From a bacterium (GTDB taxonomy: Bacteria > Zhuqueibacterota > Zhuqueibacteria > Oceanimicrobiales > Oceanimicrobiaceae): DNA of 18,241 bases. Position 1 is the stretch's first letter; each line of letters starts with the position of its first letter. The notes beneath the pieces are model-generated. The model saw only the letters and a list, made by a program, of their open reading frames with translations, was not told the DNA's origin and ran no database searches. Positions 1,485 to 17,682 of the stretch are shown piece after piece. The stretch is taken from contig JBHHYI010000087.1 in assembly GCA_046757525.1 (NCBI GenBank), positions 1-18,241 on the forward strand, in the 5' to 3' direction. A program made the translations under genes and the position numbers.

Positions 1485-1528
1485 ACCGTTCTCAGTCAGA
1501 CACCAAATCAAACTGAGGGAAAAAATAC

Positions 1529-1870
1529 ATGAAGCTCATTATCGCCATCATTCAACCACACCAACTGCCTGCGGTCAAAAAATCGCTTTACGACCGGCAG
1601 GTGTACAAGATCACTGTGACCAATGCGCTGGGGTGCGGCGAGGAAAAAGGGTACCAGGAAACCTTCCGGGGGGTTGAACACGAAGTGAATCTGCTCAAGA
1701 AAGTGCGACTGGAAATTGCGGTAAACGAAGACTTCGTTGAATCCACCGTTGCCGCTATCATCAACGGGGCGCGTACGAATCATGTAGGCGACGGGAAAAT
1801 CTTCATCATGGATTTGCAGGAGTGCATCCGCATTCGCACCGGCGAACGAGGCGGCCTGGCCATCGGATGA
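1529..1870 (+). CDS. glnK: PII nitrogen regulatory protein (GlnK/GlnB family), T-loop variant with His51
   Basis: 113 aa, aligns along its full length with PII proteins: [10 protein letters not shown]..., B-loop [11 protein letters not shown]-terminal RIRTGE. SD GAGGGA lies upstream. Position 51 in the T-loop (RGVEH) is His, not the canonical Tyr (RGAEY). Confidence 0.9.
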
Positions 1871-1966
1871 TGCATCTCGAATCGGTCGTTTACATTCGTT
1901 GCACATTTTAGCACGTCGCACAGAAAAAAAGCTGAGTTAACGACACCGTCATGTAGAGGATTTATT

Positions 1967-3406
1967 ATGCAGACCCACAATGGTAACCATATTATACCCA
2001 GAGATGTTTTTCGCACCATTAAAGAGCGAGACATCAAGTTTATCGATCTGAAGTTTGTCGATTTACCCGGGATTCTGCAACACATCACCCTGCCGGTGGA
2101 GGTTTTCGATGAAAAGATGTTCATCGAGGGCGTGGGTTTTGACGGCTCTTCCATTCGGGGTTTTCAGCGCATTCACGAAAGCGACATGCTCCTCAAACCC
2201 GACGCCTCCACCATGTTTGTGGATCCTTTCATGGACGAAGCGACGCTCTCGTTTCTTTGCAACATCAAAGATCCCCAAACCCACAAAATCTACTCGCGAG
2301 ATGCCCGTGCGGTGGCGCAGCGGGCAGAGCGCTATTTGGTGAGCAGCGGTACGGCAGATCAAGCGTTCTTCGGGCCTGAGCTGGAGTTTTTCATTTTTGA
2401 TGATGTGCGCTTCGAGCAAACCACCAACCGGGGTTACTATTACGTCGACTCGCACGAGGGTTCCTGGAACACGGGACGCGAAGAGAGTCCCAATCTTGGC
2501 TACAAGCCCCGCAACAAAGAGGGCTACTTCCCGGTTCCGCCCATGGACAGCTATCAGAATCTGCGCTCCAAGATGGTCAGTGTCATGCGGGCCATCGACG
2601 TAGATGCGGAAGCACATCATCACGAAGTTGCTTCTGGCGGGCAGTCCGAAATCGATATCAGATATAATACCATGGTTAACATCGGCGATCAGGCGTTAAA
2701 GTACAAATATGTGGTCAAGAATGTGGCCCGTCGCTACAATAAGTCCGTGACTTTTATGCCCAAGCCATTGTTCCAGGACAACGGCTCCGGCATGCACGTT
2801 CACGTCAGTTTGTGGAAAAGTGGGCACAATCTGTTCTACCAAAGCGGCAAATATGCGGAGCTCAGCGATTTGGCCGTGCATTTCATTGGTGGGCTTTTGA
2901 AGCACGCGCCAGCTTTGTGCGCCTTTTGCGCTCCGACCACCAATTCGTATCGGCGCCTGGTGCCCGGCTATGAGGCGCCCATTAATCTGATCTACTCACA
3001 GAGCAACCGCAGCGCCTGTGTGCGCATCCCCATGTATTCCGGCAGCGAAAAGGCCAAGCGCCTGGAATTCCGCACGCCCGACCCTTCGTGCAATCCGTAT
3101 TTAGCTTTCGCTGCCATTCTGATGGCCGGGTTAGACGGGGTGAGGAACCGCGATGTGCCGCCCGATCCCATTGACAAAGACATCTACGAGCTGGCAAAAA
3201 ATGGCGGTCCTGAAATCAAGAACACACCTGCCTCGCTTGAAGAGGCCATCGACGCGCTGGAAGCAGACCACGAATTCCTGTTTCAGGGGGAGGTCTTTAC
3301 AGAAGACCTTATCCGGGTGTGGCTCGATTACAAGCGGGCCCGTGAGGTGGATTACATTCGCCTCAGGCCGCATCCGAGCGAGTTTGCGTTGTACTACGAT
3401 GTTTAG
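1967..3406 (+). CDS. glnA: Glutamine synthetase type I
   Basis: 479 aa. GSI motifs are present (FDGSSIRGF; DPFMDEATL; KPLFQDNGSGMHVHVSLW; NSYRRLVPGYEAP; SACVRIP). The C-terminal region DKDIYELAKNG aligns with the adenylylation-loop Tyr of GSI-beta enzymes. Strong SD AGAGGA 7 nt upstream. Confidence 0.95.
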   Translation: MQTHNGNHIIPRDVFRTIKERDIKFIDLKFVDLPGILQHITLPVEVFDEKMFIEGVGFDGSSIRGFQRIHESDMLLKPDASTMFVDPFMDEATLSFLCNIKDPQTHKIYSRDARAVAQRAERYLVSSGTADQAFFGPELEFFIFDDVRFEQTTNRGYYYVDSHEGSWNTGREESPNLGYKPRNKEGYFPVPPMDSYQNLRSKMVSVMRAIDVDAEAHHHEVASGGQSEIDIRYNTMVNIGDQALKYKYVVKNVARRYNKSVTFMPKPLFQDNGSGMHVHVSLWKSGHNLFYQSGKYAELSDLAVHFIGGLLKHAPALCAFCAPTTNSYRRLVPGYEAPINLIYSQSNRSACVRIPMYSGSEKAKRLEFRTPDPSCNPYLAFAAILMAGLDGVRNRDVPPDPIDKDIYELAKNGGPEIKNTPASLEEAIDALEADHEFLFQGEVFTEDLIRVWLDYKRAREVDYIRLRPHPSEFALYYDV

Positions 3407-3454
3407 TGTTGTCACAAGTTTGCACGTTACCAAATCTATTTCCAGGAGGTAATC

Positions 3455-4750
3455 ATGAGTGAGATTATCGGCATTGTCATTGGCGTCGGGGCGATCGCAG
3501 TCATGCTGACGATTGTGTTCATCAAAGCCAATCTGGTTATTTGTCAGCCCAACGAAGTGCTCATCATTTCCGGCCGGCGTCGCAAATTTCCGGACGGTAC
3601 GGTGCTGGGCTACCGCATCATCAAAGGGGGGCGCGGCTTTAAATTTCCCATCATCGAATCCGTGAAGCGCCTACCGTTGAACACCATGCCCATCGAAATC
3701 AGAATTACCAAGGCGCTGGCCAAGGGCATCATTCCAATCAACGTGGACGGTCGGGCCAATGTGAAAATTGCCGGCAGCGAGAAGGACGGCTTGACCAATG
3801 CCATTGAACGCTTTTTGGGCAAGAATCTCAATGAGATTGCTCAGGTGGCCAAGGAGACCGTGGAAGGCAGTCTGAGGGGCGTGTTGGCCACGGTGACGCC
3901 GGAAGAAGCCAACGCTCAACGTCTGCAACTGGCGGAGCGCGTGGCTGAGCAGGCGCGCAACGATTTGCAAAAGCTGGGTCTGGTGTTGGATTTCGTAAAA
4001 ATCCAGAATATCTCAGACGATCACGGGTATCTGGAGGCTATCGGAAGAAAGAAGAATGCGGAAGTGGTGAAAAACGCCCGCATCGCCGAAGCCACTGCCG
4101 AAGCCGAAGCCCGAAAAGTGGCCGCAGAACAGAAACAGAAAGGCAGTGTGGCCGAAGCGGAAGCCGAGATGGTCATCACCGATGCTGAACACAAACTCAA
4201 GGTGCATCGTGCCGAATTGGCTGCCGAAACCAATCGCGCCGAACAACGCTCCAAAATCGCTGGCGACATCGCCCGGGTCGAAGAAGCACGGCGTTTAGAG
4301 GCTGAGCGTATTGAGCTGAATCGCAAAAAATACCAGGCCGACGTAGTCATTCCGGCAGAAGCTGAGAAAAAAGCCGCTGAGCTGAAAGCCAACGGCCAGG
4401 CTGCGAGAATCCTGGAGGACGGCAAAGCTACGGCTGCGGCCATCGAACTCATGCAAGCCCAATGGCAGAATGGCGACACGCGCGAGTTGTTTCTCATCCA
4501 ACTGCTGCCAGAGTTGTTGGACAAAGTGACGCGGGTGGTGGCCGACAATCTGCACATCGACAAGCTGACCGTGCTGGACTCTGGTGACGGCAACGGACTA
4601 CCCACCACCGTCAAGAATCTCACCGGTTCAGCCGTTACGATCCTGGAACAGTTGAAGAATGCCACAGGCATCGATCTGCCAGGCCTCTTACAGAATTCGG
4701 CAAAGAAAAACATGACCAACGGCAGCGAGCTGCCGAAAGAGCTCCTTTAA
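3455..4750 (+). CDS. SPFH/Band-7 domain protein, flotillin-like (YqiK/FloT-type)
   Basis: 431 aa. Has an N-terminal TM helix, an SPFH core (NEVLIISGRRRKF...VKIQNISDDHGYLEAIGRKKNAEV), and a long Ala/Glu-rich coiled coil with EA repeats (AEATAEAEARKVAAEQ...AEAEAEM) typical of bacterial flotillins. SD AGGAGG upstream. Confidence 0.85.
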   Translation: MSEIIGIVIGVGAIAVMLTIVFIKANLVICQPNEVLIISGRRRKFPDGTVLGYRIIKGGRGFKFPIIESVKRLPLNTMPIEIRITKALAKGIIPINVDGRANVKIAGSEKDGLTNAIERFLGKNLNEIAQVAKETVEGSLRGVLATVTPEEANAQRLQLAERVAEQARNDLQKLGLVLDFVKIQNISDDHGYLEAIGRKKNAEVVKNARIAEATAEAEARKVAAEQKQKGSVAEAEAEMVITDAEHKLKVHRAELAAETNRAEQRSKIAGDIARVEEARRLEAERIELNRKKYQADVVIPAEAEKKAAELKANGQAARILEDGKATAAAIELMQAQWQNGDTRELFLIQLLPELLDKVTRVVADNLHIDKLTVLDSGDGNGLPTTVKNLTGSAVTILEQLKNATGIDLPGLLQNSAKKNMTNGSELPKELL

Positions 4751-5241
4751 TGCACGGTCTCAAACTGGACGCTATCGACCTCAGGATTCTCGAAATCCTG
4801 CAAACACACGGCCGTACCAAACGCAACGAACTGGCTGAAGCCGTCAAGCTCTCCATACCCTCGGTGAGTGAACGGCTTCGAAAATTGCAGGAAGCAGGCA
4901 TCATACGGGGCATTAACGCGGTGCTGGAGGCGCGCAAGGTGGGGCTCGAAGTCACGGCGTTTATTTTTGTGGCTTCGGAATCTTCGAAATACTACGCCAA
5001 AATAATCCAACGGGCTTCGGAAAATGCGGAGATTTTAGAATGTCATGCCGTCACGGGTGAAGGGTCGCATTTGCTGAAAGTCCGGACACAAAGCACGGCG
5101 ACTCTGGAGAAGCTCCTGTCGCAGATTCAGTCCTGGCCTGGCGTTACTTACACGCGCACTAGCGTAGTCCTTTCCAGTCCAAAAGAAACGACGGTGCTAC
5201 CGCTGGGTCATTTGCGTACACGCGACGTGCCTGCCCAGTGA
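4750..5241 (+). CDS. Lrp/AsnC family transcriptional regulator
   Basis: 163 aa. N-terminal HTH (LDAIDLRILEILQTHGRTKRNELAEAVKLSIPSVSERLRKLQEAGIIRG) followed by a RAM/ACT-like C-terminal domain. Its start overlaps the flotillin stop (TAATG). Confidence 0.85.
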   Translation: MHGLKLDAIDLRILEILQTHGRTKRNELAEAVKLSIPSVSERLRKLQEAGIIRGINAVLEARKVGLEVTAFIFVASESSKYYAKIIQRASENAEILECHAVTGEGSHLLKVRTQSTATLEKLLSQIQSWPGVTYTRTSVVLSSPKETTVLPLGHLRTRDVPAQ

Positions 5242-5353
5242 GGTGCTTCTGAGGTTCAGCACAGTTTTGCCAACCCCGTTGTTTTGCGCCGCCGGAGATC
5301 GTGCAGTGACGATCCTGGCGTGCGACCCCCATCAAACATGCCAAATTTTTTTC

Positions 5354-5381
5354 TTGACTTTTTGGAAAATGTTTTTATATT
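5354..5381 (+). promoter_or_regulatory. groESL sigma70-type promoter: TTGACT (5354-5359), 16-bp spacer, TATATT (5376-5381), preceded by a T7 tract
   Basis: Read directly from the sequence. It sits immediately upstream of the CIRCE operator, the arrangement typical of HrcA-controlled groESL promoters. Confidence 0.55.
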
Positions 5382-5393
5382 TGTGTTTCGATG

Positions 5394-5420
5394 TTAGCAC
5401 TCTTTAGCGGTGAGTGCTAA
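5394..5420 (+). promoter_or_regulatory. CIRCE operator (HrcA binding site) TTAGCACTC-N9-GAGTGCTAA
   Basis: Perfect match to the CIRCE consensus inverted repeat (TTAGCACTCtttagcggtGAGTGCTAA), positioned between the promoter and the groES RBS. Confidence 0.9.
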
Positions 5421-5450
5421 TAACCAACCAATCCATAAGGAGGTGAAAAT

Positions 5451-5735
5451 ATGAAAATTAAACCATTGTCTGATCGTGTAGTCATTAAACCAGTTGAGCT
5501 GGAAGAGAAAAAAGCCGGGGGCATTATCATACCAGATACGGCCAAAGAAAAGCCCCAGGAAGGTGAGATCGTGGCGGTGGGTCCTGGCAAATTCAGCGAC
5601 TCTGGCACCAAAGTTGAAATGGAAGTCAAGACCGGCGACCATGTGCTGTACGGCAAATACTCGGGAACAGAAGTGACCATCGACGGTGAAGAATATCTGA
5701 TCATGCGGGAAAGCGACATCCTGGCCATTGTTTAA
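5451..5735 (+). CDS. groES: Co-chaperonin GroES (Hsp10)
   Basis: 94 aa ([46 protein letters not shown]...). Strong SD AAGGAGG. Directly upstream of groEL. Confidence 0.97.
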
Positions 5736-5777
5736 GGCTATTAGACGGAACCTTATTGTTGAATTTCAAAAAACTAA

Positions 5778-7421
<1,644 letters not shown>

Positions 7422-7450
7422 TCACGTCTTCCCGTGTAGACACAAACCAC

Positions 7451-7482
7451 GGCCGCTCGTTTCCAGACGGGCGGCCTTTTTT
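7451..7482 (+). terminator. Rho-independent terminator of groESL
   Basis: GGCCGCTCG-tttccaga-CGGGCGGCC stem (9 bp, one mismatch) followed by TTTTTT, about 30 nt after the groEL stop. Confidence 0.7.
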
Positions 7483-7971: not shown

Positions 7972-8486
7972 AATTCAGACATGTTTACCTGGGGCTGGGT
8001 TCAAATATGGGCGATCGCTTAAACAATCTGCAGGAAGCCTTGTCCCAGATTTCAAACCTGTCTCAAACTGTAATTGACGATTATTCATCTGTGTATGAAA
8101 CCAAACCCGTTGGATATGCTCAGCAAGCAGATTTTCTTAACATGGTTGTTGAAATCTCGACCGACTCTCCTCCGCAGCCGTTCTTGTGTGAAGTGCAAGA
8201 AATCGAAAAGCGACTGGGTCGGGTGAGAGGACGTAGATGGGGTCCTCGAACAATCGATATCGACATTTTGTATTGGGGACGCGAGCTCGTCAACACTCAC
8301 GATCTAACGATTCCTCATGCAGAAGTCGAAAACCGCAGATTTGTGTTGCAGCCTCTGAATGAAATTGCGTCCTATTTCAAGACGCCGCCGCGACAGCAAG
8401 TTGTAAAACATCTCTTAGAAATCGTTCAAGATGAGAGTTGGGTTATATTGTATCTGCCAAAAGAAAAAATCGAATTTACTAAATGA
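7968..8486 (+). CDS. folK: 2-amino-4-hydroxy-6-hydroxymethyldihydropteridine pyrophosphokinase (HPPK)
   Basis: 172 aa. HPPK motifs are present (VYLGLGSNMGDR; PRTIDIDIL; Q--VL-PL-EIA). Translationally coupled to folB. Confidence 0.9.
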   Translation: MKFRHVYLGLGSNMGDRLNNLQEALSQISNLSQTVIDDYSSVYETKPVGYAQQADFLNMVVEISTDSPPQPFLCEVQEIEKRLGRVRGRRWGPRTIDIDILYWGRELVNTHDLTIPHAEVENRRFVLQPLNEIASYFKTPPRQQVVKHLLEIVQDESWVILYLPKEKIEFTK

Positions 8487-8498
8487 CAGGTAAGCCCA

Positions 8499-9131
8499 TT
8501 GCGTCTTCAATACATTGGCATCGAAGGGGTCATTGGTGTTGGCAAAACCAGTTTAGCAAGTCTTTTGGCCGATCATTTTGGTGGTAAGGTTCTCCTGGAA
8601 AAACACGAAGAAAACCCATTTTTGCGAGATTTCTACCGCGACCCACGCCAGTTCGCCTTTCCAACCCAGCTATTTTTTCTCTTAGGCCGCTACCGTCAAC
8701 AACAGGAAATCTATCAGATAGACTTATTTCACCAACTGCTGGTGTCAGATTACATCTTTGCAAAAGATCGAATTTTTGCTTCGATCAATCTGGAAGAACG
8801 GGAACTTATTTTATATGAAAAAGTGGCATCTATGTTGGAACGGGAAATTCCGAAACCGGACCTGGTGATTTATCTTCAATCGAATACGCAGCGGCTGATG
8901 TCTAACATCAAAAAGCGCAATCGTTCCTATGAAATAAATATTACCGAAGCGTACATTCGTGGATTAAACGAGGCTTACAACCGGTTTTTCTTGAATTATG
9001 GTGACACACCGCTGCTAATCATCAATGCGACTGAAATTGACTTTGTCAACAAGCCTGAAGACTTCGAAGATTTAGTCAACCAACTGCAAAGGCCGATTTC
9101 AGGTACGCAATACTACTCACCTGTAAAGTAA
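8499..9131 (+). CDS. Deoxynucleoside kinase (dNK/dCK/dGK family); TTG start
   Basis: 210 aa. P-loop IGIEGVIGVGKTS near the N-terminus, and the dNK-family ERS-like and LID-like regions (NLEERELILYEKV...KKRNRSYEI). The start is TTG, with AGGT about 10 nt upstream. The gene is AT-rich compared with its neighbours. Confidence 0.8.
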   Translation: MRLQYIGIEGVIGVGKTSLASLLADHFGGKVLLEKHEENPFLRDFYRDPRQFAFPTQLFFLLGRYRQQQEIYQIDLFHQLLVSDYIFAKDRIFASINLEERELILYEKVASMLEREIPKPDLVIYLQSNTQRLMSNIKKRNRSYEINITEAYIRGLNEAYNRFFLNYGDTPLLIINATEIDFVNKPEDFEDLVNQLQRPISGTQYYSPVK

Positions 9132-9141
9132 ATGGATCCAC

Positions 9142-9327
9142 ATGATTTTTTTGTTGCGGGTACTTTTATTTGGGATGTTGTTCTATTACGCCTTTAAATT
9201 CTTGAATAGCCTTTTGAGCGGACCCAGCAGCAAAGTAGAAGTTAAAGGCAAGAGTAAAGGTCACCCTCCAATGAATCTTGAGGATGAAGATGTAGAAGAT
9301 GCAGAGTTTGAAGATTTGGATGACTAA
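9142..9327 (+). CDS. Small membrane peptide: one TM helix plus a strongly acidic C-terminal tail (hypothetical)
   Basis: 61 aa (MIFLLRVLLFGMLFYYAFKFL...EDEDVEDAEFEDLDD). Starts 11 nt after the dNK stop, same strand. The architecture resembles small TM-plus-acidic-tail proteins common in FCB-group genomes. No homology check was possible. Confidence 0.4.
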   Translation: MIFLLRVLLFGMLFYYAFKFLNSLLSGPSSKVEVKGKSKGHPPMNLEDEDVEDAEFEDLDD

Positions 9328-9627
9328 TTGATCTCGCCCATAATGAAAGCATTCTTGCAAATTTTAACCTTTCTCTCTCGAAATTCTGCTCTCCTTGTAG
9401 CTTCAATCTTTCGTATTGACAGCTTCTCAAGTTTGGCCGATCATTTCTGATTACGAAAATATTAAGGTTTCTGAGTTTGTTATGGTATTACCAGTTGAGT
9501 CTTCATTGTTTTCGCAAGAGAAATTTTGGGCTTCCGTGCAGTCGATTGTGTTTAATTGCTTGCAGCTTCGCTGCGCCAGGGTGTTGGCCAGCGGGGTTGC
9601 CGGGCACTTTTAAGTAGGGAATTGAAA

Positions 9628-10164
9628 ATGAGGTATTCACTGATCTTTTTGACTTTTTTGTTTCTTGCGGTTGTTTGTGCCGGAAACTCGGCGATGAGCG
9701 CTGAAAAGAATTCAGAAAAAAAAGCGTTTTTGACAAAAGTGCTTGAAGATTCCACTCAAAATTCTATATTAAGGAAACCGAGAAAAAAGTCTCCTACTGG
9801 CGCGCTGGTGCGTACATTGTTTATTCCAGGTTGGGGGCAGTGGTACAACGAACAAAAGGTTAAAGCGGTTGTGGCTTTTTCTGCGCGAGCTTTCCTGGTG
9901 GGGTTGGCCATCTACTACAACAACCGGGTTCAAAATGCAGCGAACTCCTCCGCGAAGGAGACCTACAGAGACCGGAGAAATCTAACCTACTGGCTGATAG
10001 GTGGCGTCACCCTGATCAGCATGTTAGACGCTTACGTCGATGCTTATCTATTTGATTTTGATGAGGGACCCGATTTGTCCATGAGAATGGGGGTTATTCG
10101 ACAGACAAATGAAGCAGCCGTGAATCCAGCAATCGTCGGTTTTTCACTTAGAGCAAAGTTTTGA
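9628..10164 (+). CDS. Exported hypothetical protein, DUF5683-like (conserved PGWGQWYN motif)
   Basis: I take the start as ATG 9628 (MRYSLIFLTFLFLAVVCAGNSAMSA, a signal peptide) rather than the track's 9556, which lacks an RBS and runs through the hairpin region. The motif LFIPGWGQWYNEQKVKAVVAF...GLAIYYNN resembles the Bacteroidetes/Chlorobi DUF5683 family; this is from memory and unverified. Confidence 0.6.
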   Translation: MRYSLIFLTFLFLAVVCAGNSAMSAEKNSEKKAFLTKVLEDSTQNSILRKPRKKSPTGALVRTLFIPGWGQWYNEQKVKAVVAFSARAFLVGLAIYYNNRVQNAANSSAKETYRDRRNLTYWLIGGVTLISMLDAYVDAYLFDFDEGPDLSMRMGVIRQTNEAAVNPAIVGFSLRAKF

Positions 10165-10194
10165 CAAGCGCCACTAATCAGAGGGAGGCATTTT

Positions 10195-11577
10195 ATGGGC
10201 GTAGACGGTAATGAACGTGGAGCATGGTCGTCGAAGCTTGGGTTTATCCTGGCGGGCGCCGGTTCTGCCATTGGACTGGGCAACATCTGGAGGTTCCCGA
10301 CCACAGCCGGGCAAAACGGAGGCGCTGCCTTTGTTTTTGTTTATCTGCTCGCCGTGGTGTTTATCTGCCTGGCAGTCATGATAGCAGAGTTGACTTTGGG
10401 GCGCCACACTCAGAGGAATCCGGTTGGCGTTTACAAAACCCTGGCACCGGGCAGTAGCTGGAAGTATTTAGGCATCCTTGGGGTGTTGACCGGTTGGGGT
10501 ATTTCCTCTTTTTACAGTGTGGTTGCCGGTTGGACTTTAGGCTATATTTTTAAGACGGCTGTGGGTACTTTCAGTCACGCGAACCCGGACCAGATTGCCT
10601 CCATGTTTACCCACTTTGTGAGCAATCCCGTAGCCACCATTGGATTTCACGCGGCATTCATGGCCATTACCATGTACATTCTTTTTGGCGGTGTGAGGGC
10701 AGGCATTGAACGTTGGTCCAAAATATTAATGCCGATCTTGTTGGTCATACTGGTCTTATTGGTCATTCGTTCTGTTACCTTAGAAGGCGCGGAAAAAGGT
10801 TTGGCGTTTTATATGAAACCTAAATGGAGTGAGCTGACCGGACGGGGTGTGCTGGCTGCCGTGGGACAGGCGTTTTTTTCACTGAGCTTGGGTATGGGCA
10901 CGATGATCACCTACGGCAGTTATTTGACCAAGAAAGAAAACATCGTTTCCTCTGCGGCCTGGGTTTGTTCTCTGGACACCCTCATCGCCTTGTTAGCCGG
11001 TTTGGCCATCTTTCCAGCCATCTTTGCTGTGGGTCTAAAACCGACCATCGGTGCCGGTTTGATTTTTGTGGTCCTACCGAACATTTTCAACAAGATATTC
11101 CTGGGCAATCTATTCGGCGCTGGCTTTTTTATTTTGCTGGCCATTGCTGCCGTAACCTCTTTGATTTCAATTGTTGAAGTGCCGGCGGCTTATTTCATCG
11201 ATGAGCTGAAATGGTCCAGAAAAAAAGCAGTTTGGGTGTCCGGCGCCGGCGCGTTTGTCGCCGGAATTCCTGCGGCCTTGAGTCTTGGAGCCGTGGGTTG
11301 GTTGTCGGGTTTGCTCAACATCGAAGGCAGAAACTATGGCTTTTTAGATTTAATGAATCTGCTTTTTGGGCAATACTCACTGATCGTCGGTTCCCTGGGC
11401 GTTGCCATATTCCTGGGTTGGAAATGGGGGACAGCTAACGCCAACACCGAGATTTTAGAGGGGCACCCGCGCTTTAAGAATAAGATGACGTTCGCTTTTT
11501 TTATTCGATTTTTTGCCCCCATCGCGATTGCTGGTTTGCTGATCTATTTGATTCTGAATCCTAATGCGTTTGCTTAG
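10195..11577 (+). CDS. Sodium-dependent transporter, SNF/NSS (neurotransmitter:sodium symporter) family
   Basis: 460 aa. NSS signature GLGNIWRFP near the N-terminus (WSSKLGFILAGAGSAIGLGNIWRFPTTAGQNGGAAF) and about 11-12 TM helices. SD GAGGGAGG upstream. Confidence 0.92.
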   Translation: MGVDGNERGAWSSKLGFILAGAGSAIGLGNIWRFPTTAGQNGGAAFVFVYLLAVVFICLAVMIAELTLGRHTQRNPVGVYKTLAPGSSWKYLGILGVLTGWGISSFYSVVAGWTLGYIFKTAVGTFSHANPDQIASMFTHFVSNPVATIGFHAAFMAITMYILFGGVRAGIERWSKILMPILLVILVLLVIRSVTLEGAEKGLAFYMKPKWSELTGRGVLAAVGQAFFSLSLGMGTMITYGSYLTKKENIVSSAAWVCSLDTLIALLAGLAIFPAIFAVGLKPTIGAGLIFVVLPNIFNKIFLGNLFGAGFFILLAIAAVTSLISIVEVPAAYFIDELKWSRKKAVWVSGAGAFVAGIPAALSLGAVGWLSGLLNIEGRNYGFLDLMNLLFGQYSLIVGSLGVAIFLGWKWGTANANTEILEGHPRFKNKMTFAFFIRFFAPIAIAGLLIYLILNPNAFA

Positions 11578-11995
11578 GTGGTTGTCAGAACAAAGGAATA
11601 GCTCTCTGCTGGTTTTGTTGGTCCTGGTGCACACGTTGCCGGGCGTGGGCATCTGCTACGGGCAGAGCCCAGGCTCGTCCCAGAAATTTGAACGTTTCAG
11701 CCCGGCGCTTGTTGTGAAAAAAGACCGCCCCCCGGACCGCTGGTTGGGCCACGACAAAGTCAAGCACTTTTTGGCCAGCGCATTCATCACCGGTGCTGGG
11801 TTTCTGCTGATGCACGATCCGCTGGATTGGTCGGAAAACGATGCGGTTTACGGCAGCAGCGCGCTCTCGTTTAGTGTGGGTCTAAGCAAGGAACTCTATG
11901 ACTGGAAAAGCAAGAAGGGACAGGCCAGCTTTAAGGATTTGTTTGCAGATCTGTTAGGCTTGGGCTTTGCCGTGTTTCTTATCAAAATAACATGA
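11564..11995 (+). CDS. Hypothetical exported protein or lipoprotein with a conserved-looking DKVKHF...KELYDW core
   Basis: 143 aa. Overlaps the SNF stop by 14 nt. Signal-peptide-like region (SSLLVLLVLVHTLPGVGICYGQ), then two amphipathic or TM segments. The family is unknown to me (possibly a small DUF lipoprotein family). Confidence 0.5.
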   Translation: MRLLRWLSEQRNSSLLVLLVLVHTLPGVGICYGQSPGSSQKFERFSPALVVKKDRPPDRWLGHDKVKHFLASAFITGAGFLLMHDPLDWSENDAVYGSSALSFSVGLSKELYDWKSKKGQASFKDLFADLLGLGFAVFLIKIT

Positions 11996-12004
11996 AGGTT
12001 GGCA

Positions 12005-13420
12005 TTGTCAAGACAGGGTAACGAACTCGACAAACCTCGGTGTAATTGTGCGGTTGTGGGCGTGTACGGCCATCCGGACGCTTCGGTATTTGCGTACCAG
12101 TGCCTCTACGCTTTGCAGCACCGCGGACAGGAGAGCTCGGGCATCGTTTCCAGCGATGGTGCCAAAGTGTACCGCCACGTTGGCATGGGCTTGGTCAACG
12201 ACGTCTTCTCCGATTTTACACTGCTGAGAAGCCTGCAAGGCCCCCTGGCAGTGGGCCACAACCGCTACTCTACCACGGGTTCAACTTTGCTGCACAACGC
12301 CCAACCGTTTCTGGTCGATTTTAAAGATGGCCCCCTGGCCATTTCCCACAACGGCAACCTGATCAACTCCACGGTTCTGCGGGAAAATTTAGTGGAAGAG
12401 GGTTCCATCTTCCAAACCACCACCGACACCGAGGTGGTTTTGCATCTGATGGCACGATCCAGGGAAAAGAACCTGGTTGGCAAAATTCAGTACGCCTTCT
12501 CGCGGGTCTGCGGGGCCTATTCCATGGTGCTGATTACGCGGGACAAGATCGTTGGCGTGCGCGATCCGCGGGGCTGGCGCCCACTTTGTTTAGGGAAAAA
12601 GGAGGAGGCTTATTTCATCGTGTCGGAGTCGTGTGCTCTGGACCTCATCGGGGCTGAATATTTGCGGGAAATCGAACCCGGTGAGATTTTGGTGCTGGAC
12701 CAGAAAGGCCCTCATTCCTACTGGCTCAAGGAAAAGGCGCCGCGCACCGCGTGTATTTTTGAATACGTCTACTTCTCCAGGCCGGACAGCAAGATCTTCA
12801 ACGAAAACGTGGACAAGGCCCGCAGAAAACTGGGCAAGAATTTAGCCCTGGAGCATCCGGTGGAGGCCGACATCGTCATCGCCGTGCCGGATTCTTCCAA
12901 CACGGCTGCCCTGGGGTACGCCAGCAGATCTGGGATTAAGTTTGAGATCGGCCTGATCAGAAATCACTACGTGGGCCGCACCTTCATTCACCCCGATCAA
13001 ACCGTGCGGGACTTTAAGGCGCGCGTAAAGTTCAATCCGGTAGAAGGGGTTCTCAAAGGTCGACGGGTGGTCGTGGTGGAGGATTCCATCGTGCGCGGGA
13101 CCACCCTCAGGCAATTGACAAAGATGTTGCGCCGGGCCGGGGCCAGGGAGGTTCACGTGCGCGTAAGTTCGCCTCCCATTGTGGCGCCCTGTTTTTACGG
13201 CATGGATTTTCCCACTAAAGAGGAACTCATCGCTTCTAACAAAACCGTCGAAGAGATTCGAGAATATTTAGGGGTCGATAGCCTGGGCTACCTTTCTTTG
13301 CAGGGCATGGTCGATGCGGTCTCTGATGGGCAGCAAGGCTTTTGTGACGCCTGCTTCACAGGAAATTACCCGGTTCCACCGCGAACTGAGGTGAACAAAT
13401 TTCAATATGAAAACAAGTGA
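12005..13420 (+). CDS. purF: Amidophosphoribosyltransferase (glutamine PRPP amidotransferase) with N-terminal propeptide and [4Fe-4S] Cys ligands
   Basis: Ntn catalytic Cys in ...PRCN|CAVVGVYG (compare B. subtilis ...EEC|GVFGIWG). Motifs QHRGQESSGIV, the PRTase motif VVVVEDSIVRGTT, and cluster cysteines (CFYGMDFPT; CDACFTGNYP). The start is uncertain: TTG 12005 has GAAGG 6 nt upstream, while TTG 11999 is the first in-frame start but directly abuts the SD. Confidence 0.92.
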   Translation: MSRQGNELDKPRCNCAVVGVYGHPDASVFAYQCLYALQHRGQESSGIVSSDGAKVYRHVGMGLVNDVFSDFTLLRSLQGPLAVGHNRYSTTGSTLLHNAQPFLVDFKDGPLAISHNGNLINSTVLRENLVEEGSIFQTTTDTEVVLHLMARSREKNLVGKIQYAFSRVCGAYSMVLITRDKIVGVRDPRGWRPLCLGKKEEAYFIVSESCALDLIGAEYLREIEPGEILVLDQKGPHSYWLKEKAPRTACIFEYVYFSRPDSKIFNENVDKARRKLGKNLALEHPVEADIVIAVPDSSNTAALGYASRSGIKFEIGLIRNHYVGRTFIHPDQTVRDFKARVKFNPVEGVLKGRRVVVVEDSIVRGTTLRQLTKMLRRAGAREVHVRVSSPPIVAPCFYGMDFPTKEELIASNKTVEEIREYLGVDSLGYLSLQGMVDAVSDGQQGFCDACFTGNYPVPPRTEVNKFQYENK

Positions 13421-14372
13421 CAAAATCTTAAAACCACTTGATTACATTTTTGTTCTCAGACCCACGCTGTTCTTTCCGGTCTGGACCGTATTTTTGTCCG
13501 GGTTTTTTGTCCAGCAAAAGTTCGGCACGAGCGTTGCAGGTTCCAACGACCATACACTGGTCCTTGGTCATCTGCACCACACTTATTTCTGGGTCGGTCT
13601 GTCTTTGACGTTTTTGATGGGTGCCGTTTTTATCCTGAACCAGATTGAAGACCGGGTCACGGACCACCAGAATCGCAAGTTATTTTTGATCGCGCACGGA
13701 CATTTAACGCCCAAAGCCGCCGCCATCGAGGCAGCCATTCTTATTGTGCCCTCGCTGATTTTCGCGTTTGTTTTTGCACCCCTTATGGGGCTGCTCTTTC
13801 TTGCCTTGTTGCTGTTTACCGGATTGATTTACAGCCATAAGCCTTTTAGCTGGAAGGACAAGCCGCTTTTGGGGTTGCTCACCAATATCCTGGGCGCTTA
13901 TTTGATCTTCATCGGCGGTTGGATCGTTGCGGGCAAGGTGAACCGGAACCTGATGGTGCACGCGCTGCCCTATGCCGCAGCGGTGGCAGCCGTCTATTTG
14001 TACACCACCTTGCCGGACCTCGAAGGAGATGCCGCTTCCAAAAAGGTGACTTTTGGGGTCAAATATGGCTTTAACGCGACCGTCTATTGCGGCCTCCTGT
14101 TTGAGACCCTGTCCGTGATTGCCGCTTACATGTTGAACGATGAAATCATATTCTACCCTGCTTTCTTTTCCTGGCCCTTTTTCATGTGGGCGGCGATTAA
14201 GTTGAAGCCGCGGGATGTGATTCGGGCCATCAAGTATCCTATTCTGCTGTTGTCGTTGACAGTCTGTATTAAACTGCCAAATTATTTTTTCTTGCTGGTA
14301 GGGGTTTATTTTATTTCTAAGGTTTACTACAAATTGAGATTTGGGCTTGATTACCCCAATATGGCGGCTTAG
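13407..14372 (+). CDS. UbiA-superfamily membrane prenyltransferase (divergent first Asp motif)
   Basis: 321 aa, about 8-9 TM helices. First Asp-rich motif in the TM2-3 loop is NQIEDRVTD (N-x-x-x-D-R-x-x-D, like the heme O synthase/DGGGPS variants). Second motif is LPDLEGDAASKKVTFGVKYG (D-x-E-G-D...K-K-T...G), typical of the UbiA family. Overlaps the purF stop. Confidence 0.75.
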   Translation: MKTSDKILKPLDYIFVLRPTLFFPVWTVFLSGFFVQQKFGTSVAGSNDHTLVLGHLHHTYFWVGLSLTFLMGAVFILNQIEDRVTDHQNRKLFLIAHGHLTPKAAAIEAAILIVPSLIFAFVFAPLMGLLFLALLLFTGLIYSHKPFSWKDKPLLGLLTNILGAYLIFIGGWIVAGKVNRNLMVHALPYAAAVAAVYLYTTLPDLEGDAASKKVTFGVKYGFNATVYCGLLFETLSVIAAYMLNDEIIFYPAFFSWPFFMWAAIKLKPRDVIRAIKYPILLLSLTVCIKLPNYFFLLVGVYFISKVYYKLRFGLDYPNMAA

Positions 14373-14444
14373 CTTAACTCGGCAACGTGGGGCAATGGTT
14401 AGAAGGTGGTGCGCCCCTCATAAAACACTAGTGGAAAAGGAGAT

Positions 14445-14795
14445 ATGGAACCCAAGATTCTAATGATCGGCAGGACTCAGAAAGTGATTGACATACTATT
14501 GACTGAACTGCGAAAGTTTGGTAGAGATGTCATCGGAACAGATTCAAAAGAAACGGTGGAGGACATCCTAAGAAATCAGCCTACTGACCTGGTTGTGATG
14601 GGTGCCGGATTGCCTGAGCAGGTTCGGGAAGAAATGACCGCATTTATTCATTCCATTAAACCGGGGTTACCCGTTCATTTAATACAGCGTACCAAAGACG
14701 GCGGTCCCAGCAAAATGATTCCCTTTACCAATGAAAAAGCGGTAGAGTTCAAAATAGAAAAGACGCTGGGCAACAAAGCTTCTAACCTACTATGA
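14445..14795 (+). CDS. Small alpha/beta (pseudo-receiver-like or flavodoxin-like fold) hypothetical protein, translationally coupled to the ferredoxin
   Basis: 116 aa. Perfect SD AAGGAG. Alternating beta-alpha pattern (KILMIG / DVIGT / DLVVMGAGLP / PVHLIQ / KP) resembling a CheY-like receiver with the acidic pocket and phospho-Asp replaced (GR..., MGAG). Stop overlaps the ferredoxin ATG (ATGA). Noticeably lower GC than the flanking genes. Confidence 0.55.
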   Translation: MEPKILMIGRTQKVIDILLTELRKFGRDVIGTDSKETVEDILRNQPTDLVVMGAGLPEQVREEMTAFIHSIKPGLPVHLIQRTKDGGPSKMIPFTNEKAVEFKIEKTLGNKASNLL

Positions 14796-15001
14796 TTGGC
14801 ATCATCAACGACAAATGCGATTTTTGCGGTACTTGCGTGGCTGTTTGCCCCGTCGATTGTATCGATTTGTACGAAGCGAGGATCGAGATCACCGAGAAGT
14901 GCATCGACTGCATGCTGTGTGTTTGGATTTGTCCGGTTGAAACCCTGGCGCCGCTGCAAGAGATGGAGGAGGCATCTTGCGAGACAGCTATGACTGCATA
15001 G
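14792..15001 (+). CDS. 2[4Fe-4S] ferredoxin (clostridial type)
   Basis: 69 aa with two CxxCxxCxxxCP motifs (CDFCGTCVAVCP; CIDCMLCVWICP). Overlaps the GGR start, so it is co-translated with GGR. Confidence 0.8.
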   Translation: MIGIINDKCDFCGTCVAVCPVDCIDLYEARIEITEKCIDCMLCVWICPVETLAPLQEMEEASCETAMTA

Positions 15002-16161
15002 TTGTGGGTGGTGGCCCTGGCGGGGCGTGGGCTGCAAAATATGCGGCAGAGAAAGGGGCGCGGGTGCTGCTGTTGGAGAAGGACCGCGAAATCGGAACGC
15101 CGGTGCGTTGCGCCGAGGCTGTGGGCGAACGCGGGCTCAATATGGTGGTGGAGCCACAACCGCGCTGGGTCACCAACGTCATCGAAGGGGCGGTTCTCGT
15201 GGCACCAGACGGCAAGGAAGTGGTGTTGGAAAGCGAAAAAGAGGGCGACCGCGGCCTCATGCTCGACCGGAAGATCTTCGATTATGACCTGGTTCAGTTG
15301 GCCACCATGCAGGGCGTCGAGGTGATGACTAAAGCCTATGTTTACGGACTGATTAAGAACAACGGTGCGGTCAAAGGGGTCCGGGTGCAGCACATGGGCA
15401 GCAATCTGGAAATTCGTTCCAGACTGGTCATCGGCGCTGACGGCGTCGAATCGCGTGTGGGCCGCTGGGGTGGCCTGCGCACCAACATCAAAATGAAAGA
15501 CATGGAAAGCTGCCTCCAGATGACCCTTTCTAACATCAAGGTGGAACCAAAATATGTCTATTTTTACTTTGGCCATGAGGTCGCACCCGGCGGCTACCTT
15601 TGGGTGTTTCCCAAGAATGACCGGGTGGCAAATGTGGGCCTGGGCATTTCAGGAGAATACGCCCGCTTCAAATCTGCCAGGCAATACCTAAAGCAGTTTA
15701 TCGACAAGCATTTCCCGCACGCCGCGGTGCTGTACACGGTGGTAGGGGGCGTACCCTGTGCTCCGACCTTGAAAAAAATCACGGCGGACGGGCTGATGCT
15801 GGTGGGAGATGCCGCCCATCAAGTGAATCCGATTTCGGGTGGTGGCATCGTGACCGCCATGATTGCCGGCAAAATGGCCGGATGCGTGGCGGCCCAGGCG
15901 ATCGCCACCGATGACCTGTCGGATAAGGCCCTGGCAAGATACGCAGCCGATTGGCATCAGGCCGAGGGAAAAAACCACGAAAGGTTTTACAAAATTAAAA
16001 AGGGGGTGTACAAACTGACCGATGAGGATTTGAACAAAACGGCTGACGCGGTTTTGCGTTTGCCGCCTGAGAAGCGGACCATCATCAACATATTCAAATC
16101 GGCGCTGGTGAATCACCCCCGACTTATTCTGGATGTGCTCAAAGTGTTTATGAAGAATTAA
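14977..16161 (+). CDS. Geranylgeranyl reductase family FAD-dependent oxidoreductase (archaeal GGR/ChlP-like); TTG start
   Basis: 394 aa. Rossmann motif YDCIVVGGGPGGAWAA...LLLEK; catalytic-Cys motif PVRCAEAV; GGR signature YxWxFP-x7-GxG (GGYLWVFPKNDRVANVGLG); FAD motif LVGDAAHQVNPISGGGI. SD GGAGGAGG lies 4 nt before TTG 14977. Confidence 0.9.
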   Translation: MRDSYDCIVVGGGPGGAWAAKYAAEKGARVLLLEKDREIGTPVRCAEAVGERGLNMVVEPQPRWVTNVIEGAVLVAPDGKEVVLESEKEGDRGLMLDRKIFDYDLVQLATMQGVEVMTKAYVYGLIKNNGAVKGVRVQHMGSNLEIRSRLVIGADGVESRVGRWGGLRTNIKMKDMESCLQMTLSNIKVEPKYVYFYFGHEVAPGGYLWVFPKNDRVANVGLGISGEYARFKSARQYLKQFIDKHFPHAAVLYTVVGGVPCAPTLKKITADGLMLVGDAAHQVNPISGGGIVTAMIAGKMAGCVAAQAIATDDLSDKALARYAADWHQAEGKNHERFYKIKKGVYKLTDEDLNKTADAVLRLPPEKRTIINIFKSALVNHPRLILDVLKVFMKN

Positions 16162-16179
16162 TGACGCTCAGGAATTCTC

Positions 16180-16734
16180 GTGAAGGTTAAGGATATCTTT
16201 TACATTTCCAATTTGCTCAGTCTTTCGAGAGTGGTTCTCGTGGGCCCGATTTTTTATTTTTTGAAATTGCAGACGCCCACCGCCAAGTATTGGGCTGTCG
16301 TGTTTATGCTGGTAGCCGCAGCCACAGACATATTCGATGGCCGTCTGGCCAGGAGGTTAAATCAGGTTTCCGATTATGGCCGCATTATCGATCCCGTAGC
16401 CGACAAGATTGGGATTGCCGTGGTGGCGATCGTTTTGGTGACTACCAGAGGTTTGCCTCTATGGTACCTCATCGCAATTGTGGCACGCGATGCGACCATA
16501 TTGGTTTTCGGTCTGTTCTTGGTTCAGCGAACCAAAAGAGTGGTCGAATCCAACAAGATCGGCAAGGTGACGGTGACGGCGTTGGGCGCCGTAGTGATCG
16601 TGTTTACGCTGCAAATCGATGCGGTTAAATGGGTCTTCCTTTGGATCAGTGTGGGACTGCTGGCCCTGTCCTCCGCGAGTTATTTTTGGAAACTAATTAC
16701 TTTGTTGAAGCAGCAAAGCCAGGAGTTTGCTTGA
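16180..16734 (+). CDS. pgsA: CDP-alcohol phosphatidyltransferase, PgsA-like (phosphatidylglycerophosphate synthase); GTG start
   Basis: 184 aa. Family motif D-G-x2-A-R-x8-G-x3-D-x3-D (TDIFDGRLARRLNQVSDYGRIIDPVADKIG). Size and TM layout closely parallel E. coli PgsA ([32 protein letters not shown]). Confidence 0.85.
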   Translation: MKVKDIFYISNLLSLSRVVLVGPIFYFLKLQTPTAKYWAVVFMLVAAATDIFDGRLARRLNQVSDYGRIIDPVADKIGIAVVAIVLVTTRGLPLWYLIAIVARDATILVFGLFLVQRTKRVVESNKIGKVTVTALGAVVIVFTLQIDAVKWVFLWISVGLLALSSASYFWKLITLLKQQSQEFA

Positions 16735-16743
16735 GAAACGGCG

Positions 16744-17682
16744 ATGGCATCTATTCTCGATAAATTCAAAAAAGGTCTGGCGAAAACGCGCGAGGGCTTT
16801 GTTGAGGAAATCGTCAAGTTGGTGAAGAACAAGTACGCCATCGACGATGAGCTTTTGGAGCAAATGGAAGAGACCCTCATTGCTGCCGACATTGGAGTAG
16901 AAACGTCTGTTGGAATTATCGAGCACTTAAAACAGTATATTAAAAGTGAAGGATTTCGTGAGCCAGACGAGATTGTTAAGGCATTGAAAGAACAAATACG
17001 TAGCCGGTTGATCGAGGCAAGCTCTGCTTTTGGCCGCAACAGCGTCCTGGAGCTGTTCGATGCTCCGGTTAAACCTTTAGTCGTCATGGTGGTGGGCGTC
17101 AACGGAACCGGCAAGACGACGACGATCGGGAAATTGGCGAAGTTGTTTCGTGACCGGGACAAAAAGGTGTTGTTGGCCGCCGCCGACACGTTCCGCGCCG
17201 CCGCTTCCGAGCAGTTGGAAGTCTGGGCGAAACGCTCTGAAGTGGATGTGGTGCGCAACCTGACCGGCAGCGATCCCGCTGCTGTGGCCTTCGACGCGCT
17301 CAAGGCCGCCATCGCCCGCAACGTCGACGTGTTACTCGTGGACACGGCTGGTCGGTTGCACACCAAAACCAACCTCATGGAGGAACTCAAGAAGATTCAT
17401 CGGGTTTTGGGGAAAGCCATGGCGAGTGCTCCGCACGAAGTGTTGTTGGTCCTGGACGCTACCACCGGGCAAAACGCCCTGGCGCAGGCGCGTCAATTCA
17501 AGGAAGCCGTGGATGTCACCGGCATCGTCGTCACCAAGTTAGACGGCACGGCCAAGGGCGGCATCTTGTTGGCCATTCAAAATCAGTTGCACCTGCCCGT
17601 GTGCTTTGTTGGACTGGGGGAATCTCTGGACGATTTGAAACCCTTTGAACCTGAAACGTTTGTCGAGGCTTTGTTTCAATGA
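16744..17682 (+). CDS. ftsY: Signal recognition particle receptor FtsY (NG-domain form)
   Basis: 312 aa. N-domain followed by a G-domain with GVNGTGKTTT (G1), DTFRAAA, DTAGR (G3), TKLDG (G4), and the SRP-GTPase insertion box. The ALLVDTAGRLHTKTNLMEEL region is typical of FtsY. Confidence 0.93.
   Translation: MASILDKFKKGLAKTREGFVEEIVKLVKNKYAIDDELLEQMEETLIAADIGVETSVGIIEHLKQYIKSEGFREPDEIVKALKEQIRSRLIEASSAFGRNSVLELFDAPVKPLVVMVVGVNGTGKTTTIGKLAKLFRDRDKKVLLAAADTFRAAASEQLEVWAKRSEVDVVRNLTGSDPAAVAFDALKAAIARNVDVLLVDTAGRLHTKTNLMEELKKIHRVLGKAMASAPHEVLLVLDATTGQNALAQARQFKEAVDVTGIVVTKLDGTAKGGILLAIQNQLHLPVCFVGLGESLDDLKPFEPETFVEALFQ

Follow-up and report, generated by a model that had tools for sequence, protein, structure and literature searches.

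A conserved gene unit of UbiA-type prenyltransferase, ferredoxin and archaeal-type geranylgeranyl reductase in KSB1/Calditrichota-like bacteria, with a probable role in making a saturated isoprenoid membrane compound

The contig JBHHYI010000087.1 (18,241 nucleotides; this whole stretch of analyzed DNA is called the window below) belongs to an uncultured KSB1/Calditrichota-like bacterium. Among its five co-directional open reading frames (ORFs) at 13407-16734, the conserved unit consists of three genes, not five: a UbiA-superfamily membrane prenyltransferase (UbiA), a 2x[4Fe-4S] ferredoxin and an archaeal-type geranylgeranyl reductase (GGR). This unit probably makes a saturated isoprenoid membrane compound. 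The best single reading, to which we assign a probability of about 0.4, is that it builds a saturated isoprenoid membrane lipid by archaeal-type ether lipid synthesis. We favor this reading because the GGR is closest to characterized archaeal lipid reductases and has all their motifs, because the adjacency of ferredoxin and GGR mirrors Methanosarcina acetivorans and Thermoplasma acidophilum, and because the three genes follow one another at tight spacing in 39 of 55 loci and are kept together where the downstream genes differ. Further reasons are that the best model for UbiA, PRK12884, is of the type of digeranylgeranylglyceryl phosphate synthase (DGGGPS) and the top Foldseek match is the DGGGPS of Methanocaldococcus jannaschii (MjDGGGPS), that a separate, genuine MenA exists in related genomes, and that homologs of geranylgeranylglyceryl phosphate synthase (GGGPS) and DGGGPS have been published for KSB1 and Calditrichaeota, the Cloacimonetes enzymes being active (PMC7852524).

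Geranylgeranyl reductase and ferredoxin

The GGR matches the digeranylgeranylglycerophospholipid (DGGGPL) reductase of T. acidophilum (3OZ2) with an E-value of 5.4e-78 across residues 3-384, and with 227.8 bits against a cut-off of 158.8 it is a member of family TIGR02032. Among NCBIfam models, those of archaeal DGGGPL reductases score highest (274 bits for the model from Thermoplasmatales and 187 for the other), compared with 120 bits for BchP/ChlP and 39 for MenJ; the protein stays under the equivalog cut-offs of NF041160 and NF041080 (273.8 vs 780 and 187 vs 580), both of which are lineage-specific models. In the alignment to 3OZ2 the motifs GGGPGG, PVRC45AEA, R98KIFD, PGGYLWVFP and LVGD are all present; these motifs define archaeal lipid GGRs (PMC10821996). 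Judged by its sequence, the protein is a convincing reductase of the archaeal lipid type, and its lipid substrate is a prediction. The initial annotation had arrived at the same class from two hallmarks, the Cys of PVRCAEA and the YxWxFP motif. Both are found, and only the spacing has to be corrected: GxG comes eight residues after YLWVFP, not seven, and the same distance occurs in the Thermoplasma GGR.

The ferredoxin possesses two complete CxxCxxCxxxCP motifs (C9/C12/C15/C19-P and C37/C40/C43/C47-P) and lies directly 5' of the GGR gene in all 39 GGR-bearing loci. The GGR of M. acetivorans requires the ferredoxin encoded beside it, and the GGR locus of T. acidophilum also contains a 4Fe-4S protein (PMC10821996). 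We presume that the ferredoxin is the electron donor to the GGR; that it is dedicated to this enzyme, as the initial annotation proposed, is supported by the pairing in 39 of 55 loci together with the literature on the Methanosarcina and Thermoplasma pairs. The likeness to the archaeal systems (MA1484 GGR with MA1485 ferredoxin; 3OZ2) is one of architecture, i.e. an FAD-dependent GGR with an adjacent small 4Fe-4S ferredoxin as its likely reductant in vivo, and one of shared motifs (the PVRC Cys, PxxYxWxFP, RxxFD and LxGD). Unlike them, the window pair is found in a bacterial host and in an operon with UbiA, and its GGR score of 274 contrasts with the lineage-specific cut-off of 780.

Conservation of the UbiA-ferredoxin-GGR unit

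UbiA homologs with 44-69% identity were obtained from metagenome-assembled genomes (MAGs) labeled KSB1 and Calditrichaeota. When one genome per GTDB species was scanned, 67 loci were recovered; they come from KSB1, Calditrichota/Caldithrix, Marinimicrobia and unlabeled MAGs of the Fibrobacteres-Chlorobi-Bacteroidetes (FCB) type, with none from Cloacimonadota. ORFs were called in all loci and matched to the window proteins. The 55 loci to which our counts refer are the non-redundant ones that have 2 kb or more of sequence downstream of UbiA. In 39 of them, distributed over KSB1, Calditrichota and Marinimicrobia, the ferredoxin gene and then the GGR gene stand immediately 3' of the UbiA gene. 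The order is invariant, and the genes mostly overlap or are a few bases apart. The same UbiA neighborhood was found again when the search started from GGR homologs (58% and 69% identity).

The surroundings are conserved as well. PurF lies directly upstream of UbiA in 46 of 51 loci, and the block reads FolB-HPPK-dNK-...-PurF-UbiA-[Fd-GGR]-PgsA-FtsY-RimO-...-PurN-PurH-MreBCD, where dNK is a deoxynucleoside kinase and Fd the ferredoxin. Among the 49 loci that extend at least 3.5 kb downstream, GGR and PgsA are both present in 17, GGR without PgsA in 17, PgsA without GGR in 14, and neither of them in one. Because of these neighbor counts for PurF, GGR and PgsA, the region as a whole is a stable housekeeping block. 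The three genes stay joined where this block breaks and the downstream genes differ; in Marinimicrobia, for example, GGR is succeeded by a DinG-like helicase gene, with neither PgsA nor FtsY adjacent. In a neighbor-joining tree of the UbiA proteins the linked state occurs in every major clade and the GGR-less loci are concentrated in one, which suggests that the linkage is ancestral and was followed by local loss or relocation. The linkage of UbiA with the ferredoxin-GGR pair, which the initial annotation had noted in a single sequence, is a long-conserved feature with a constant gene order.

The unit may not be intact everywhere: in L076 (CP070762.1, a 5.2-Mb genome), UbiA is called as a 194-aa fragment and short ORFs upstream of an intact ferredoxin-GGR pair, which may be a pseudogene or a frameshift error.

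The UbiA prenyltransferase

With 74.1 bits against PF01040 (gathering threshold 34.2), the window protein belongs to the UbiA superfamily, and it has the all-helical fold of nine transmembrane segments with a cytoplasmic cap that is found there. Its catalytic motifs are intact. Motif 1 reads N78-Q79-I-E-D82-R-V-T-D86, motif 2 comprises Y142...K150, and motif 3 is T201-x2-D204-x3-D208; N78, D82, D86, Y142, K150, D204 and D208 are each kept in at least 96% of 256 family members. The family signature consists of N-Q-x2-D-x3-D, T-T-x2-D-x2-G-D and a C-terminal YYxxRFxxxYP, the last being specific to this family. At least 338 clusters (50% identity, E <=1e-30) among 1.84 billion representatives belong to it, and a search outward from the most divergent member (L072) gave nine matches.

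For calibration, the true M. jannaschii DGGGPS sequence and that of a chlorophyll synthase were recovered from PDB alignments and scored on the same models. On PRK12882, PRK12883 and PRK12884 (cut-offs 296, 353 and 269), MjDGGGPS obtains 298, 212 and 260 bits, the non-member ChlG 86, 63 and 101, and the window protein 34, 18 and 44, i.e. it does not reach any of the cut-offs. Because a true DGGGPS scores 260 bits on it, we regard PRK12884 as a DGGGPS-type model. Within the family it is also the subfamily model that fits best and most consistently (24 of 26 members, best E 1.9e-17); behind it, the models for BchG/ChlG, MenA, DGGGPS (PRK12882) and homogentisate phytyltransferase (HPT) follow close together. 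According to Foldseek, the top PDB match is MjDGGGPS (6M31; E 4e-6, TM 0.61), with which the window protein shares the fold, the N-x3-D-x3-D of motif 1 (N78, D82 and D86 map to N62, D66 and D70), the Y...K of motif 2 and the D-x3-D of motif 3. On sequence grounds, UbiA is best described as an orphan clade within the superfamily, whose substrate is not readable from the sequence.

Other assignments were tried and rejected. As a MenA, the protein has 35 bits against a cut-off of 277, and related Marinimicrobia genomes encode a separate, genuine MenA: in three loci another UbiA protein 4.5 kb downstream passes the MenA model TIGR00751 (116 vs 102 bits). For ChlG/BchG the scores are 31-32 bits against cut-offs of 212-313, and for CyoE and MqnP they are far under the cut-offs. 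The profile placement had a divided outcome, with the GGR falling to the archaeal lipid clade and UbiA falling, by cut-offs, to none of DGGGPS, MenA or ChlG. Chlorophyll and menaquinone pathways are unlikely, in agreement with the initial annotation. The pattern N-x-x-x-D-R-x-x-D that had been noted in motif 1 is present; its label as DGGGPS type was mistaken, since MjDGGGPS has N62-D63 there, and the enzyme class drawn from it is not supported for a protein that is farther from the DGGGPS models than chlorophyll synthase and has lost one catalytic Asp.

The Marinimicrobia MenA is itself a 462-aa protein about 4.5 kb downstream of the three-gene unit, with a PNPOx-like part N-terminal to the MenA part. 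This architecture looked unusual to us; the PNPOx-like match is weak (Pfam E 1.2e-4, 22.9 bits, below the cut-off of 28.1).

Proposed pathway

In the pathway that we propose, the membrane protein UbiA would use its Mg2+/Asp-rich site to transfer a polyprenyl group, probably geranylgeranyl, from its diphosphate to a lipid acceptor. The acceptor would most likely be based on glycerol phosphate, as in DGGGP synthase, and the result would be an ether-linked isoprenoid glycerolipid. The FAD-dependent GGR, reduced by the co-translated 2x[4Fe-4S] ferredoxin, would saturate the double bonds of the chain, as in Methanosarcina and Thermoplasma. Head groups would come from the regular CdsA/PgsA enzymes of the cell, and the PgsA-like neighbor gene may take part, without being specifically coupled. 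We regard the three genes as coupled on the strength of conserved, apparently ancestral and tightly packed synteny, and strong homology argues for the chain-saturation half. We infer the prenyl donor and the glycerolipid acceptor, as well as the reaction order and the product; the ether-lipid acceptor is put forward tentatively.

A published counterpart is the GGGPS-DGGGPS-GGR system of Cloacimonetes (Villanueva et al. 2020, PMC7852524), for which, as here, a UbiA-family enzyme and a euryarchaeal-type GGR in a host of the FCB superphylum are proposed to make archaeal-like ether lipids beside the bacterial membrane; KSB1 and Calditrichaeota are among the phyla listed with homologs, and the Cloacimonetes GGGPS and DGGGPS enzymes are active. 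Published surveys (PMC7852524, PMC6431249) report GGGPS and DGGGPS homologs together in Calditrichaeota and KSB1 genomes, only in separate genomes in Marinimicrobia, and co-localized only in Cloacimonetes; they also relate the FCB GGRs to those of Euryarchaeota. In Cloacimonetes, DGGGPS is co-localized with GGGPS and described as close to TACK-archaeal DGGGPS, whereas the UbiA of the window is co-localized with ferredoxin and GGR, has no GGGPS near it and, going by the published description, is set apart as a remote orphan clade.

Several findings weigh against an archaeal-type ether lipid as the product. First, the UbiA protein itself departs from MjDGGGPS, to which it is 14-17% identical, and its HMM (hidden Markov model) scores are about one seventh of the DGGGPS cut-off. 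The position of D63 is Gln in 99.6% of the 256 family members; the position of D180, the mutation of which strongly lowers MjDGGGPS activity (PMC9385802), is T201 and is Thr in 89% of the family, with D183 and D187 retained; and the RPxPSG loop after motif 1 (RPLPSG in MjDGGGPS) is swapped for N-x-K-L-F-L-I-A. ChlG (29.7 bits) and MjDGGGPS (25.7 bits) lie at the same distance from the family profile, and because UbiA scores under ChlG on the DGGGPS-type models, homology as measured by these models cannot assign the acceptor. Second, partner genes are missing from the neighborhood: searches within 10 kb of UbiA in 69 loci gave neither a group I nor a group II GGGPS (queries checked against PDB entries 2F6U and 4MM1), and no CarS, glycerol-1-phosphate dehydrogenase or geranylgeranyl diphosphate synthase is among the genes that recur within 7 kb downstream; the genome of the window is represented by 18 kb only. 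Third, PurF is as adjacent as the candidate genes in the conserved block, which makes adjacency alone weak evidence, and one clade retains UbiA without a neighboring GGR. Finally, none of the cultured relatives has been reported to contain an isoprenoid ether lipid, the description of Fidelibacter giving an analysis of fatty acid methyl esters (FAME) only. The Caldithrix genome paper contains no lipid data, and the description of Caldithrix reportedly used FAME alone as well. A FAME analysis would miss ether isoprenoids.

A GGGPS of the FCB type was also sought in metagenomes with a group II alignment (M. thermautotrophicus 4MM1 and 6NKE, both sequences checked against the PDB), and at 50% identity or more only archaeal loci were recovered. 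Two metagenome contigs (L151 and L154) cluster all three core ether-lipid genes: an archaeal-type GGGPS that is 56% identical to that of M. thermautotrophicus, a DGGGPS gene on the minus strand (134 bits to MjDGGGPS) and, beside them, an ORF of about 930 aa with a GGR in it (177 bits against the GGR of the window), apparently fused to extra sequence.

Alternative explanations

The main rival, which we hold to be somewhat unlikely, is that UbiA prenylates a non-glycerol acceptor (for instance a head group of aromatic or quinone-like nature, a carboxylate of the tetrapyrrole type or, as DPPR synthase does, a sugar linked to polyprenyl phosphate) and that the ferredoxin-GGR pair saturates the side chain of the product or supplies a phytyl-type donor. 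The logic would be that of ChlG with ChlP, HPT with ChlP or MenA with MenJ, and the pairing is indeed the same in ChlG/BchG with ChlP/BchP and in MenA with MenJ, namely a UbiA prenyltransferase and a GGR-family reductase that act on one isoprenoid side chain. Against the PDB, the UbiA family profile matches chlorophyll synthase best (E 6e-6) and also DPPR synthase (2e-5), and does not match MjDGGGPS by sequence; the HMMs for BchG/ChlG, MenA, HPT and DGGGPS give similar scores throughout. Changes in the Asp motifs and the loss of the RPxPSG loop suggest that substrates are handled in an unusual way, the lack of GGGPS within 10 kb in the 69 loci fits as well, and GGR-family enzymes are promiscuous (PMC9385802). 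On the other side stands the genomic context: in no locus are genes of aromatic, quinone or tetrapyrrole pathways adjacent, none of the examined loci contains bch/photosynthesis genes, the canonical MenA is encoded separately, and all cut-offs for these enzymes are widely missed. The KSB1, Calditrichota and Marinimicrobia lineages are not known to be phototrophs. Furthermore, the GGR is of the archaeal lipid type; at 274 bits it stands much nearer to lipid GGRs than to ChlP/BchP with 120 or MenJ with 39.

A bolder version of lipid synthesis, which we consider unlikely, is that the UbiA clade represents an unrecognized bacterial isoprenoid-lipid synthase that, with the ferredoxin and GGR, would give saturated (phytanyl-type) glycerolipids as constitutive components of KSB1, Calditrichota and Marinimicrobia membranes. 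Such a route would do without canonical archaeal DGGGPS and perhaps without PcrB-type GGGPS as well; prenylation of glycerol 3-phosphate or of lyso- or acyl-glycerol phosphate, for example, would lead to mixed acyl/isoprenoid lipids.

It is improbable that the linkage is merely historical, with UbiA, ferredoxin-GGR and PgsA as unrelated housekeeping genes in a very stable, superoperon-like block. In its favor, PurF, FtsY and RimO are linked as tightly and widely as the candidate genes, PurF overlaps UbiA, and in a clade of some 14 loci UbiA and PgsA occur but ferredoxin-GGR does not. Against it, the three genes remain joined in Marinimicrobia and in one subclade of KSB1, although the adjacency of PgsA and/or FtsY is lost there; gain or loss at this very junction always affects ferredoxin and GGR as a pair; and two isoprenoid-acting enzymes, UbiA and GGR, would be unlikely to meet by chance among some 15 block genes.

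Gene array and neighboring genes

The window is a single long co-directional gene array in the order amtB, glnB, glnA, SPFH protein, Lrp, groES, groEL, folB, folK, deoxynucleoside kinase, DUF5683, SNF-type symporter, DUF2279, purF, the five genes of interest, and ftsY. The same array was recovered from two independent assemblies. The coordinates, the common direction and the partial overlaps described in the initial annotation were all reproduced (PurF/UbiA 14 nt, 116-aa ORF/ferredoxin 4 nt, ferredoxin/GGR 25 nt), and its domain identities agree with the Pfam and NCBIfam matches; as sequence matches, the assignments of UbiA, ferredoxin, GGR and CDP-alcohol transferase are far beyond chance. 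Within the five-gene region, terminator-like and promoter-like sites between genes do not exceed the shuffle expectation, and Rfam and tRNA scans gave nothing above chance.

Features of the window and of related loci (aa, amino acids)
Locus	Feature	Coordinates	Strand	Evidence
Window	UbiA-superfamily membrane prenyltransferase, orphan clade, 321 aa	13407..14372	+	Pfam UbiA E 1.4e-20
Window	CheY-like pseudo-receiver (probable), 116 aa	14445..14795	+	no family match
Window	2x[4Fe-4S] ferredoxin, 69 aa	14792..15001	+	Fer4 E 3.4e-13
Window	Archaeal-type FAD-dependent GGR, 394 aa	14977..16161	+	GGR_cat E 4.8e-28
Window	PgsA-like CDP-alcohol phosphatidyltransferase, 184 aa	16180..16734	+	Pfam CDP-OH_P_transf E 6.9e-35
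Window	Nitrogen-assimilation cluster	132-3406		amtB, glnB/P-II, glnA
Window	Region of low G+C	8000-9500		G+C 0.40-0.43
Window	61-aa ORF directly 3' of deoxynucleoside kinase gene	9142-9327		no family
Window	Junction insertion	14445-14795		
L015	Junction insertion	11264-11977		
L032	Junction insertion	11502-12370		
L040	Junction insertion	11211-11913		
L016	Junction insertion	11048-11269		
L008	Junction insertion	5402-5747		
L038	TPR/CsgG-like gene	12968-13975		
L076	TPR/CsgG-like gene	9197-10210		
L019, L025, L052, L060, L071	TPR/CsgG-like gene			
L076	UbiA fragment and short ORFs	6455-7461		
L063	462-aa PNPOx-like/MenA protein	15732-17120		
L046, L064	462-aa PNPOx-like/MenA protein			
L151	GGGPS, DGGGPS and GGR cluster	573-4344		
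L154	GGGPS, DGGGPS and GGR cluster	2222-5993		

Two of the five genes do not appear to belong to the pathway. The PgsA-like protein has TIGR00560 (pgsA) as its best model, with 85.8 bits against a cut-off of 109.1; its syntenic ortholog in L003 has 98.5. Its gene is a neighbor from the housekeeping block, and its membership in the module is doubtful. The initial annotation had counted it in favor of a lipid role; because it is present or absent independently of the GGR, this support is weak. The 116-aa ORF, which had been taken as a member of the cassette, is confined to the window and its two identical copies among the 69 loci, and it matches neither a Pfam nor an NCBIfam family. Upstream of it lies a strong AAGGAG ribosome-binding site. 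Its AlphaFold2 (AF2) model (pLDDT, a per-residue confidence score, 79.8) gives Foldseek matches to receiver domains at E ~1e-4, and the phospho-acceptor Asp and acidic pair of receivers are missing (GRT after strand 1, VVMG at the acceptor position). On the basis of this model, it is probably a CheY-like pseudo-receiver with a flavodoxin-like fold, a lineage-specific insertion outside the pathway; a role as redox partner or pathway regulator was rejected because of this restriction to one lineage.

Junctions inside and beside the UbiA-ferredoxin-GGR-PgsA array repeatedly contain unrelated small inserted genes: a HAD-like hydrolase, two TIR-like ORFs, a nucleotidyltransferase/HEPN pair, a HicA-like ORF, PemK toxins and the pseudo-receiver of the window. 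They look like insertion hot spots within an otherwise rigid block. In at least seven loci a gene of about 335 aa for a TPR and CsgG-like lipoprotein stands directly 3' of GGR, where it replaces or precedes the PgsA-like gene. The compact nitrogen-assimilation cluster at the 5' end of the window is unrelated to the three-gene unit. The low-G+C region covers HPPK, the deoxynucleoside kinase and a small ORF, compared with 0.50-0.58 elsewhere; ORFs of 60-65 aa occur at the same position after the kinase gene in L003, L005, L007 and L077, and their likeness is one of position and size.

Implications

The general idea of archaeal-type lipids in FCB bacteria was published in 2020 (PMC7852524). Our literature search found no description of a UbiA-ferredoxin-GGR operon or of the divergent UbiA clade with altered catalytic motifs. 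Ideas on early cell evolution give a central place to the 'lipid divide', which sets archaeal membranes of isoprenoid ethers apart from bacterial ones of fatty-acid esters, and the Cloacimonetes are, to our knowledge, the sole bacterial counter-example with enzyme evidence so far. A UbiA-ferredoxin-GGR operon that is tightly conserved and apparently ancestral in three further FCB phyla would tie chain saturation, the step lacking in E. coli reconstitutions, genetically to a prenyltransferase in bacteria. It would offer a defined three-gene unit for expression and assay, and in the cultured organisms Caldithrix and Fidelibacter the product could be sought directly. If UbiA uses another acceptor, the clade would be a new functional branch of a well-studied enzyme superfamily.

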